A stretch of DNA of 63,748 nucleotides, filler included, from Reclinomonas americana ATCC 50394 (Eukaryota): assembly GCA_048213135.1 (NCBI GenBank). It is 4 parts of 3 records of this genome, joined end to end, with 100 filler letters (N's around TTAATTAATTAA, not from the genome) between each part and the next. Parts side by side here need not be neighbours in the genome. Positions count along the whole stretch, not along the records: positions 1 to 29,651 come from PS015486.1; positions 29,752 to 42,647 come from PS015487.1; positions 42,748 to 57,441 come from PS015487.1; positions 57,542 to 63,748 come from PS015490.1. One strand, 5' to 3'. Below the pieces are notes generated by a model. The model ran no database searches. It had not been told where the DNA came from and was given only the letters and a program-made list of their open reading frames with translations. Of this stretch, positions 1 to 63,748 are shown one piece after another (within the stretch, counting starts at the first letter, position 1; each line of letters opens with the position of its first letter). Made by a program: the position numbers and the translations under genes.

Positions 1-3000
1 CGGGGCGGGTGCGGCAAAGGGCATCATCAAGGCGCGATCGGCCAACATCTTCTTTCGCTCGATCTCCGCGGCGATAGCTGCTGTGCGTTTGCGAATGTCC
101 TCCTCGAGCTGACGCTTGCGCTCGCGTCGCGATTCGTTGCGCAGACGCTTGGCGATGCTCTCGGCGTCTTGGAACTCGGTAGTCTTGGCACACTCCAACT
201 CGGCACCGACCAGCCACGTCTCCGACTCGGTGTGCTCGGTGGTGAACGGCGACAGAAGCGTCGGCATTGCACGGTCCCTGTCCGCCTTCTTGTCGCCGGG
301 ACTGCAGAAAGACCATGCAAGTGAGCGACAACAAACAACGGACTGTGCAAGTAACAACACGCAACTTGTGAAGAATCTTGAACATGCCGGTTCCCAGCGG
401 CACCGGCGTACCCATGATGATGCACTCTGACACACCGTCCATGTGATCGCAGCGCGTGTGCGCCGCCGCATCGAACAAGTGGTCCACTGTCTTCTCGAAC
501 GAGGCGAGCATCAGCACCGAATCCTTCATCTTTTGCACGCCGAAACGCGTAATGCCGAGGATCTCGCCCTTGAAGGTCATGGTGTCGGCCAGCAGCTGAA
601 TGTGTCGACTGTCGATGTTCATGCCGTGCGACTTCATCGTATACTGGATCTCGTCCACAATCGTCTTGCGGGCCGCCTCAATGCCGAGCACTTTTTCCAC
701 CTGGGATACGTTCGCGAGAATCAGCAGCTGCACATTAAACAAGAAAGGCGTCGCATCCCAGTACCTCCATAATGTGGTTGCTTCGCGTCTTGCGGGCCAC
801 CACGCCGGGCGTGCCCATCACTTGCAGCAACTTGGTGCCCTCGGCCAAAATCTGGTGCTCCTTGCCCTTGACTGCATCCTCAGCCTTGACACTAATGACG
901 GCGCGACTGACCGTGTCAATGCCGGCGACCACAATCTTGGAGATGGCGTTCTTGATGGTCTGCAGCTGGTAGTACATGTGCGCGCGGTCCTGCATCGGCG
1001 TCATGATGCGCAACTTGTACTCGCTGACAGCTTGCACGTGCTGTCACAGGAGACCGCGCGACGTAAGCCACACTGCTGCAATATGACACCAAAACCTCCA
1101 CCGCTTGCTGTCACTCACCTTGTCGCGCAGCTTCAACTTGGGCGCCTTGATGATAGCCGCTCGCACCTGCTCGGCTGAAATGCTCAGCTGCAGATCCTGA
1201 ATGGTCTTCTCCGCCAGGCGCACTGAAAGGTAGCAGCTCCCGGGCGAGTACACCTCCTTGATGTACTCGCACACCTCGCCGAGGGTGGTGCGCTCAATGC
1301 GCGCCTTGACCAAACGCGCACTCTGCTCCGACCACGGGTTCTCCAGCGTGGCGGTGATGATGGGAGTGTTGATCTTTTGCGAGGCATTGATGATTTCCTT
1401 GATGCGCGGTACACCAAGCGTGACGTCTGACACCCGCGCAGGACTGTCAGCGACATTCTCCGCAAGGCCAGAAAGCAACTGACGCAACTCATGGAGGCGA
1501 CGCCGGCAAAGTGGAATGTCTTCAGAGTCATTTGCGTGCCTGGCTCACCGATCGACTGCCCAGCCAGTGCACCAATGGCCTGACCCGGTTGCACGTGTGC
1601 GTCGCGGCACTTGGTGACGCACAGGCGGCAAAACTCCTCCAGCTGGTTGCGCGTGATGCCAAAGGCCTTGTTTACCACACCAGTGGCCAAGTTGAAATCT
1701 GCCATGCGCAAGTGTGAGGGCAATCACCACCAATAGCTGCTGCTGTGCGACAAGGGCCACCTTGGCGGGTGCGGATGCGATCGCCTGCATGAAAATGCGA
1801 AAGTGAGTACGAGTGCGCGCACGCTTTCCATCGTGACACCGCCACCACACACGCAACTTGGTCGGCGAGCAGTGAGGGGTGCGGCAACTGAGACACAGAG
1901 AACATAAATGCGTAAGGATTCTCGTGCAGCACAGATATGCGCCGCGTCGGCAGTGACACGAACCGTCTGTCGTTGTGGATGCGAGCAGAATCTGATCGCG
2001 CAGTGCTCGGTAGCCTGTGATGACGAGTTTCAGAGGGGGAACAACTGTAGCAAGACAATCGTCGACATTACCTTGCTCGGCTGCAGTGGAGTCTTTAACA
2101 CACAAAGAGCGCATGTTAGTAAGCACGACACAAAGTGTCACGACGGTCATTCATCGACTCACCGGCCATGGCTTGGCGAATGACTGATGGTCGCGGAGAA
2201 AACACACAGTGACGATGAGACAACGGATCATTGTTGCCCTGCACACTCCTTGCGCAAACAAGAACACACACCGGCAGTCATGCGCTCGCCTGCCAAGCAC
2301 ATGAGTGAGCGAATGAGTGTCGACAAGATGCACAACGCGCAGATGGACTCACCCGCTAATCTCGCCTCCTTGACTCCGACAACCTCTGTACAGATAGGTG
2401 CACGCAATGAGATGCCAAGCGCAGCTCAAGCTCCGTGTTGATCCTCACTGACCTCGGACACCCACGGGCGGTGGAAGCAGGAAGGGTGGTGCTGCAGACA
2501 AAGTGAGACATTTGACGTAACGCGAGACGTGACACGCCAACGCTAACCATCGAGGAGAGGCTCGACATCTATGCACAAATGGAGAAATGCGAATCGTCCA
2601 GTTAGCGAATGCGTGCGTGCTTTTGGAGAGGCAACGGTGCGGCTGGCACATACCCTTCATGGCGAGCACGGCGGCCTCCACGGCGGCATCAGCGGCTGCG
2701 ACGTGTCAACGTGAGCATCTACAGCACACACGCAGCAGGGGCGACACAAGCGGGAACCTTCCACAGCAGCCGTCGCCACTGTTCAACAAAGGCGACATGA
2801 GTCTCAAAATGAGAGATGTGTGCACCCAAACCAACAATGAACTAACCGCGCTCTGCATCGCTCGTTGCTGTGTGATGAGACGCCGTGCGACGTAAGAAAC
2901 ACGGACAACACGAACAAATGATGAGCATGCAATGACAACACACACCGGCATTTGCGTCTTCGTCGCCTGTGCACCGCGACAGTGTGCGTGAGAATTTGTG

Positions 3001-62600: not shown

Positions 62601-63748
62601 AACTGCACGAGGGCTCCAAGAGGAGATCGCAGGAGCCGACCGACGCCAATCCCGTCTCGTCGCGCTCGCATGCCGTGCTGCAGGTTGGCAAATTCTCACA
62701 GTGTAGGAGCTCCTGTCTTTATTTTTTGCTCACAAGAGCGCTGCATCAGGTGGTCGTCGAATCTGAAGACCGCGCCGGTGACCGTGTCGCGCGTGTGCGT
62801 GTCGGCAAGTTGTCGATGGTGGATTTGGCTGGCTCCGAGCGTGCCTCGCACACGAATGTTGCGCTCTTGCTCTTTGTTTCGCAATCGTCCATCCAGCTTA
62901 TTGTGCATCTACGCAAACAGAATACCGGTATTCGCATGCTGGAGGGTGCCAAGATCAATCGCTCACTTCTGGCTCTCGGCAACTGCATCAATGCACTGGG
63001 CGAGAAGCGCGGCCAGGTCGCTCACATTCCATACCGTGACTCGAAGCTCACAAGATTGCTCAAGGTCAGTCAGTGAGTTTTTTTGGTGTGCGTTACCCCC
63101 CTCTGTCTCATGTCGACCTGCAGGATTCACTGGGAGGCAACTGCCGCACTGTGATGATTGCCGCAATCAGTCCCTCCGAGCACTTGTGGGAGGAGACCCT
63201 TAACACGCTCAAGTACGCCAACAGAGCGAAGAACATCAAGACCAAGGTGATGCTTGCGCCTCTGCTCTGCTTTTTCCAATCTCTCTTCTAAATCATTCAT
63301 CACCCCCAGGTCACTCGTAACGTGTTGCAAGTGGAGCACCACGTCGCCGAGTACGTGCGCATCATTGCCGACTTGCGTGGTCAAGTCAAGAACTTGCGGT
63401 ACCAGCTGGCGGCAAATGGTGAGTTGGCGACTGGCGCCAGTTAGTGTCGCCTCTGTTATATTTCACATTCTCACTCATACACACGCAGCTGGTCATCCAG
63501 AGCCACTCCAGCGCAAGGCTCTCACCTCACAAGCCGAATTCTATGCCTCCAAGGTTTAGCACTCGAAAATTGTTTCCTTCCCTCTTCCTTTCTCTCGCAA
63601 CACTCACGCATGGTCATTCTCCCCGATGCATACAGCTGCGCGAAAACTTTGAGTCGCGCCTTTACTTGCACCAGTCGCTACAGGACACAAGCTTGGACAG
63701 GTACGGAGCGGGAGCCATTGCGCGCAACAGTTTGCATATCACTAAGAA
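59650..63748 (+). CDS. Kinesin-8 family motor (KIF18/KIF19-like); 3' end beyond window
   Basis: [77 protein letters not shown] and [14 protein letters not shown]. Confidence 0.93.
61391..61660. repeat. Intronic 12-bp minisatellite (TCTGCCTTCTCC)n, about 22 copies
   Basis: Directly visible tandem array with degenerate flanks, inside kinesin intron 60773-61822. Confidence 0.95.

Follow-up and report, generated by a model that had tools for sequence, protein, structure and literature searches.

The window analysed here, that is, the whole stretch of 63,748 bases of Reclinomonas americana DNA (3,171 N across 19 runs; G+C content about 55%), was densely packed with genes that carried many short introns. 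Our subject is the 5' splice sites, or donors, of those introns, and all results were drawn from this one window of the genome. A first-pass annotation had listed about 35 donors of a second kind, GTTGCG, and had connected them with a variant U1 small nuclear RNA (snRNA). The existence of the second donor class was confirmed, and the window also contained a U1 gene with an altered 5' end. The gene names in the annotation were upheld by Pfam matches on the predicted exons, among them TTLL12 (SET_TTL and TTL), USP (UCH and a USP40-type UBL), KMO (kynurenine 3-monooxygenase), an FtsX-like permease, a GSK3-like kinase, IleRS, a kinesin and a WD40/CTLH protein. Further exons, beyond the genes already named, matched a cofilin, an SDR, a PWI protein and a TGS1-like cap methyltransferase. 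RPC1 was placed as follows:

1-7345, minus strand: RPC1, whose best relative in the protein collection was only 54% identical, so that the collection does not include the organism's own proteins.

Junctions were placed by a profile-to-genome spliced aligner, written for the analysis, which accepted any GT..AG pair and did not presuppose the GTTGCG motif. Its hidden Markov models drew on full-length homologues for RPC1 (40 of 69) and IleRS (45 of 98) and on 16 homologues for TTLL12; the last were of 540-680 residues and were chosen from 110 matches of a HMMER representative search, while a word-index search with a TTLL12 exon as query found no homologue. Of the 48 introns in these spliced alignments, 29 were kept as homology-grade, with at least 6 bits lost on forbidding the donor and a flanking profile score of at least 12 bits. 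A self-trained coding-potential parser was also written, and in its first, donor-neutral run a donor was defined as GT only. This run recovered 18 of the 29 homology-grade introns, rising to 23 after the motif had been learned. The parser was crude (KMO, the permease and GSK3 came out as a single gene), and we treat what it counted as secondary evidence only.

Two classes of donor

Each of the 35 listed coordinates was the exact start of GTT[GA][CT]G in the orientation of the gene concerned (32 GTTGCG, 2 GTTGTG and 1 GTTACG). The last exon base (-1) was never G, as had been claimed, but A (19 cases), T (12) or C (4). That the window holds two types of donor was borne out by the donor-neutral parse, in which GTTGCG was the most frequent donor hexamer (14 of 117 introns; the runners-up reached 5 each). 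In later runs, for which the parser used signals it had derived itself and scored positions on the two sides of the junction independently of each other, GTTGCG accounted for 25 of 121 donors. Within 16 gene spans (41,335 nucleotides), the sense to antisense ratio of GTTGCG was 56:16; the control hexamers were near 1:1 (GTTGCA 28:19, GTTGCC 19:24, GTTGCT 23:20, CTTGCG 17:26).

With a slash for the exon-intron junction, the ordinary donor (class 1) was (A or G)AG/GTNNGT, with G at -1, and the second (class 2) was H/GTTGCG(T or C), the forms GTTACG and GTTGTG being rare. Of 44 class 2 sites, 70% had T at +7 and 27% had C. Class 2 made up 9 to 10 of the 29 homology-grade introns, and in the wider set of 129, homology-grade and ab initio together, the counts were 29 for class 2 and 100 for class 1; its share of the window's introns was thus about a fifth to a third.

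The proposed tie between class 2 and a base other than G at -1 was strong. Among the homology-grade introns, G stood at -1 in 0 of 9 GTTRYG donors and in 18 of 20 others (Fisher p=5.5e-6), and in the wider set in 2 of 29 and 76 of 100, respectively (p=1.2e-11). Both class 2 cases with G, at 24159 and 25212, were ab initio only, and "never G" may not be absolute. The composition of class 2 at -1 (A 48%, T 36%, C 11%, G 5%; n=44) was indistinguishable from that of class 1 at -2 (A 49%, T 25%, G 15%, C 11%; n=100; p=0.28), whereas it departed sharply from that of class 1 at -1 (p=5.8e-14).

Independent homology backed 15 of the 35 listed donors, 13 strongly and 2 more weakly. The strong cases were supported by the profile spliced alignments (RPC1, IleRS, TTLL12), by PDB residue numbering (GSK3, KMO) or by Pfam (USP, kinesin), and by these homologies the 13 junctions were fixed at residue resolution. 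Nine of them were homology-grade GTTRYG donors (1488, 5693, 16119, 17699, 18847, 19507, 44772, 45234 and 45598), for which forbidding the donor lost 7.8-15.0 bits. Splicing restored conserved motifs at the junctions, as the annotation had reported for W/YIMDE, IACK/YIE and GLRN-Q-GATC. The listed introns with such support, together with the last one listed for RPC1, were:

1427..1488, minus strand: RPC1 intron; donor tga/GTTGCGTC, phase 1; profile contiguous from 1069 to 1070; forbidding costs 10.7 bits.
5627..5693, minus strand: RPC1 intron; donor caa/GTTGCGCA, phase 2; profile 424 to 425; forbidding costs 7.8 bits.
302..365, minus strand: last listed RPC1 intron; donor caa/GTTGCGTG; in the donor-neutral optimum, past the end of the local profile alignment.
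15652..15721, minus strand: USP intron; donor cca/GTTGTGTT, phase 2; spliced Cys-box GLRN-Q-GATCYLNS; the downstream exon is UCH profile 7-35.
16119..16191, plus strand: TTLL12 intron; donor gct/GTTGCGCG; profile 18 to 19; forbidding costs 8.4 bits.
17699..17762, plus strand: TTLL12 intron; donor ggt/GTTGCGTC; junction SIW/YIMDEVGS against consensus pvW/yimDEfGs; forbidding costs 11.2 bits.
18847..18904, plus strand: TTLL12 intron; donor agt/GTTGCGTC; junction RIACK/YIERPG; forbidding costs 12.6 bits.
19507..19577, plus strand: TTLL12 intron; donor aga/GTTGCGTT; profile 568 to 569; forbidding costs 9.4 bits.
19605..19676, plus strand: TTLL12 intron, weaker support; donor cat/GTTGCGTA; profile 577 to 578; forbidding costs 0.4 bits, a small loss explained by the closeness of the site to where the alignment ends at the C terminus.
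20482..20551, minus strand: KMO intron, weaker support; donor cac/GTTGCGTG; exons to 275 and from 278 of 6lkd_A, a 2-residue gap, consistent but not exact.
21739..21818, minus strand: KMO intron; donor aca/GTTGCGGA; exons to 37 and from 38 of 6lkd_A (41 and 42 of 5x68_A), contiguous.
28332..28398, minus strand: GSK3-like kinase intron; donor cga/GTTGCGTC; exons to 123 and from 124 of human GSK3-beta (1i09_A), contiguous.
44772..44841, plus strand: bacterial-type IleRS intron; donor tca/GTTGCGCC; profile 643 to 644; forbidding costs 13.4 bits.
45234..45297, plus strand: IleRS intron; donor aaa/GTTACGTG; profile 752 to 753; forbidding costs 15.0 bits.
45598..45660, plus strand: IleRS intron; donor gaa/GTTGCGCT; profile 827 to 828; forbidding costs 13.8 bits.
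62858..62920, plus strand: kinesin motor intron; donor aat/GTTGCGCT; exons are Kinesin profile 210-242 and 245-272; in the donor-neutral optimum.

The donor-neutral optimum contained 15 of the 35 listed donors, and 28 could be forced at a cost of at most 8.3 bits. Donors 1857, 3968, 12070 and 26809 cost more than 11 bits in the coding model and were without other support, although a high forcing cost is weak negative evidence, because donor 21818 cost 14.7 bits and was confirmed via PDB numbering. Donors 4245, 4065, 3968, 1857, 17059, 17232 and 18046 lay beyond the reach of homology, the profile alignment there being too sparse: RPC1 at 1857-4450 (minus strand) matched about 40 profile positions and TTLL12 at 16574-17610 (plus strand) about 6. 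These stretches are presumably lineage-specific insertions of many small exons.

The class 2 introns had GT..AG termini, and splicing restored frame and homology. A branch-like CTCAC 5-mer was about as frequent in class 1 (43% of 90 introns) as in class 2 (39% of 38), CAG acceptors occurred in both classes, composition was similar, and the median lengths were 69 nucleotides (class 1) and 64 nucleotides (class 2). Beyond +7, class 2 showed no conservation; as the information content there was about 0, its introns have no common body. Class 2 introns are ordinary U2-type introns, distinct only in the first recognition of the 5' end, as branch site and acceptor are common to both classes.

Two groupings of the motif were also observed. 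At 25725-25734 (minus strand), tandem in-frame GTTGCG donors stood 9 nucleotides apart (ggatac/GTTGCGTCT/GTTGCGCT), possibly as an alternative donor pair. Ten GTT[GA]CG sites were clustered at 32845-33584 (plus strand), just upstream of the U1 gene, where the parser called no gene; this is probably an unannotated intron-rich gene.

A variant U1 gene and its complementarity to the donors

The U1 gene was missed by an Rfam scan at the gathering threshold and found by a scan at an E-value threshold:

34061..34214, plus strand: variant U1 snRNA gene (RF00003, 64.0 bits, E 1.5e-13, model positions 1-166 of 166).

Its first 11 bases, AUACGUAACUU, departed from the Rfam consensus, AUACUUACCUG, at U5>G, C8>A and G11>U only. 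Elsewhere in the Rfam alignment, the loop of stem-loop I read GAUCAAGCAGG (consensus GAUCAaGAAGg), that of stem-loop II read CAAUGCACU against CAUUGCACU, a single change, and the Sm-like U-run read AAUUUUUUAUAG against AAUUUgUGgUAG. We take these three elements to be the U1-70K, U1A and Sm sites, respectively. The reverse complement of bases 3-11 was AA/GUUACGU. The annotation had matched class 2 to a variant U1 carrying a U-for-C change; the complementarity of the gene to class 2 stood, but the alignment contained no such change, only the three substitutions above.

From +1 to +7, class 2 donors (GUUGCGU, GUUACGU) paired with the window's U1 free of mismatches, with a G-U pair at +4 in the G form. 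This mismatch-free pairing required +1G to lie opposite C9 and not C8. In that shifted register, the consensus U1 had exactly two mismatches, C8 and U5. Between nucleotides 3 and 9, the variant differed from it at just these two positions, and its C8>A and U5>G turned both into Watson-Crick pairs. Class 2 had been described as the normal donor with one T added, making up for the loss of G at -1. It did not look like that, but was a complete, near-perfect complement of the variant U1, one base off register, in which +1G would take over C9, the partner of that lost G. The rule at -1 would follow from this, because the shifted register sets the last exon base of class 2 opposite U10, like position -2 of class 1.

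Pairing energies separated the classes. All 10 GUU(G/A)C donors among the homology-grade introns paired with the window's U1 at -6.9 to -11.8 kcal/mol in the register displaced by +1, which in each case beat the usual register; with the consensus U1, the same donors gave -1.6 to +3.6 kcal/mol in either register. Among the remaining 19 homology-grade donors, none preferred the window's U1 in the +1 register. At the IleRS donor 45234, 11 consecutive pairs were possible, with a duplex energy of -11.8 kcal/mol. Recognition of class 2 by an ordinary U1 was not supported, as the energies of the consensus U1 on these donors lay only between about 0 and -3.7 kcal/mol. The comparison of canonical with variant U1 that the annotation had proposed was made with duplexfold, bulges allowed, and favored the variant for class 2, with means (n=10) of -8.9 kcal/mol for the window's U1, -1.9 for the consensus and -5.0 for a U1 with U5>G only. 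For class 1 (n=19), the means were -3.7, -6.8 and -8.6, respectively. GUGAGU-type donors gave -0.4 to -1.7 with the window's U1 vs. -10 to -11.5 with the consensus. Every combination of bases at positions 5, 8 and 11 of U1 (64 in all) was scored against both classes, and the best 8 for class 2 all had G5 with A8 or G8; the window's U1 ranked 6th for class 2, at most 0.4 kcal/mol off the best, and 51st for class 1.

Two homology-supported donors had A at -1 and stood outside the class 2 motif:

43324-43380, plus strand: IleRS intron; donor gaa/GTTACACA, departing from GTTRCG at +6; in the shifted register, still -6.9 kcal/mol with the window's U1.
18458, plus strand: ordinary-looking donor, cga/GTGCGTGT; in the usual register, -6.9 with the window's U1 vs. 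-3.3 with the consensus U1.

Proposed recognition of the two classes

We consider it probable, at roughly 0.65 and judging from sequence, that two kinds of 5' splice site coexist in the U2-type GT-AG introns and that class 2 is recognized by the variant U1 at 34061-34214. In such a duplex, +1G would pair with C9, +2U with A8, +3U with A7, +4G or A with U6, +5C with G5, +6G with C4 and +7U with A3, and the last exon base would face U10. The register for class 2 would be displaced by one base from the universal one, +1G taking the C9 pairing normally held by -1G. During spliceosome assembly, U1 leaves before catalysis; from this knowledge of the spliceosome, cleavage would be expected to stay at GU, with U1 marking the site and then departing. 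Because class 1 donors pair poorly with the window's U1, we predict for them one or more additional U1s, carrying C8, elsewhere in the genome. We infer that the gene at 34061-34214 is expressed, that its product recognizes class 2 and that a second U1 exists. A two-U1 system is the most likely arrangement, ranked over a single U1 because GUGAGU-type donors reached about -1 with the window's U1 and about -11 with the consensus. We would lay even odds on its full form, a two-U1 major spliceosome in which a dedicated A8 paralogue would read a fifth to a third of the introns one base displaced and an ordinary U1, possibly of ACGUACC type, would read the rest.

Several observations weigh against recognition of class 2 by this U1. 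The gene scored 5.5 bits short of the Rfam gathering score of 69.5, partly because of the three mismatches in its conserved 5' end. It is one copy in one window, and it may be a pseudogene or the genome's sole U1. A search of metagenome and genome contigs in two public collections for the variant 5' end together with stem-loop I found no relative. On the exon side, a G at -1 could wobble with U10, so pairing by itself leaves the rarity of G unexplained, and T, at 36%, is also without pairing to U10; we lean toward reading the rarity of G through the likeness to class 1 position -2. Finally, some sense-strand sites, such as GTTGCGC at 1014 in RPC1 (minus strand) and GTTACGA at 43405 (plus strand), lay inside homology-confirmed exons, apparently unspliced, and the motif alone is therefore not sufficient. 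In each contig collection, one match to the variant 5' end was judged to be chance, being no U1 by Rfam or by eye.

If the window's U1 were instead the sole U1, it would serve class 2 in the shifted register; on class 1 it would keep to the usual register, bear a G-A mismatch at +1 and depend on -1G with C9 and on +5G/+6U. Part of class 1 agreed with this: GUGCGU and GUACGU donors paired about equally with the window's and the consensus U1 in the usual register (5070, -7.0 vs. -7.8; 18458, as listed above), the unusual class 1 mix at +4 (A 27, C 33, T 28 of 100) was compatible with G5, and position -3 (G 35%, A 21%) was compatible with U11. The near-absent pairing of the GUGAGU-type donors, the rank of 51 among 64 for class 1 and the 27% of class 1 donors with +4A nevertheless make a sole U1 unlikely.

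It is improbable that a conventional U1 reads the GTTGCG donors through a shifted or bulged register, the window's variant being irrelevant or a pseudogene. Shifted and bulged registers have been experimentally established in human cells (PMC4856993), and the shortfall in Rfam score would fit a pseudogene. However, bulges were allowed in the duplexfold energies, which for class 2 strengthened stepwise from the consensus through the U5>G-only form to the window's U1, and both changes in nucleotides 3-9 were complementary at exactly the mismatched positions, for which chance is unlikely. Validated noncanonical registers in human made up 1.5% of sites, in the accessible part of that report (PMC4856993), against the roughly 20-30% of class 2 here. 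That the GTTGCG sites are chance motifs or misplaced junctions and not donors is very improbable; the 4 of 35 costly, otherwise unsupported sites would agree with it, but the rank of GTTGCG in the donor-neutral parse, the 56:16 sense bias and the 13 homology-fixed junctions stood against it.

U12-type introns have an RTATCCTT donor and a TCCTTAAC-like branch site. The idea that class 2 consists of such introns, which its sharply conserved donor in a minority of introns superficially recalls, or of a recently spread introner family (a repeated element), is scarcely credible, as the donor was not RTATCCTT, no distinct branch motif was seen, the CTCAC-type motif and CAG acceptor were those of class 1, an Rfam scan of the window gave no match to U11, U12 or U6atac at E up to 5, and the introns had nothing in common beyond +7.

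The proposed recognition of class 2 by a variant U1 has partial parallels. Shifted-register 5' splice sites in human were reportedly described by Roca and Krainer in 2009. In the accessible part of a report on them, all U1 pairs are displaced by one position and cleavage still occurs at GU (PMC4856993). Class 2 would resemble these sites in the pairing of +1G with C9, the cleavage at GU and a donor that starts with GUU. Unlike class 2, the human sites as treated there are rare and are read by ordinary U1 with a mismatch at C8; the window class is abundant, and C8>A and U5>G remove the mismatches.

In Entamoeba and Mastigamoeba balamuthi, the U1 5' end has been altered to complement an atypical donor, and the Mastigamoeba U1 is given as ACGUAC, with GUGCGC-type donors, in the portion of the preprint available (bioRxiv 10.1101/2022.06.08.495308). 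The window's U1 would be like the Entamoeba type in that its 5' end has changed to the complement of the class 2 donor, and it has U5>G in common with Mastigamoeba, whose donors resemble our class 1. As far as that portion goes, however, each of these systems joins a single U1 to a single donor consensus, the register is the usual one and changes occur only opposite +3 and +4, whereas in the window position 8, the partner of +1G, was changed, the register was moved and two classes coexisted (29 vs. 100).

Several U1 types in one genome, as we propose here, are not without precedent. Human cells are said to hold variant U1 snRNAs (vU1s) beside the standard U1. In the diplonemid S. specki, an alternative U1 occurs beside the standard one, and in the accessible text both are comparably complementary to the same donor logo (PMC12621601). 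An alternative U1 in Physarum is mentioned in the available part of the preprint (bioRxiv 10.1101/2022.06.08.495308). Unlike the situation in the window, the accessible accounts describe none of these variants with a distinct, abundant and sharply defined donor class. U12-type introns and the U11 small nuclear ribonucleoprotein (snRNP) offer a further likeness, as a minority class with a tightly conserved donor and, as proposed here, an snRNA of its own; unlike them, class 2 would depend on a homologue of U1 and has the branch site and acceptor of the major class, so that 5' recognition alone differs. A literature search that fell short of most subscription journals turned up neither a GUUGCG donor class nor a natural U1 bearing A8.

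The U1 5' end is usually held almost invariant across eukaryotes, and C8 pairs with an intron base that never changes. A natural A8 U1 with abundant shifted-register donors would, if true, mean that the register between U1 and the 5' splice site can evolve, that U1 marks the site without fixing the point of cleavage, and that a genome can split its introns between two U1 snRNPs. The two-U1 system would then amount to a third, U1-defined intron class beside the U2-type and U12-type, and it could have originated when a U1 gene was duplicated and one copy underwent a single change, C8>A, after which matching donors spread. Gene finders trained on G/GTRAGT-type donors can be expected to misplace a large share of exon boundaries in R. 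americana.

Other features of the window

The window held further features outside the donor classes:

43003-46106, plus strand: IleRS of bacterial type, with relatives of about 920-940 residues that have a C-terminal zinc-finger domain and 61-64% identity over the KMSKS exon; its alignment began at profile position 232, directly after the N runs at 42648-42747.
42152-42223, minus strand: tRNA-Arg (anticodon CCT), 63.8 bits, between two protein-coding genes.
55375-56325, minus strand: exon matching RNA cap guanine-N2 methyltransferase (TGS1-like), an enzyme of the type that hypermethylates snRNA caps; it comes after a PWI-domain exon at 56839-57045.
63017-63123, plus strand: kinesin intron called by the parser, across which about 15 Kinesin profile positions (272 to 290) were unaccounted for.

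The bacterial type of the IleRS suggests an organellar enzyme. The parser's junction in the kinesin gene is probably wrong or conceals a small exon. Intergenic stretches, such as 7100-8600 and 58200-60100, contained long CA/GT and CT/GA microsatellite-like tracts.

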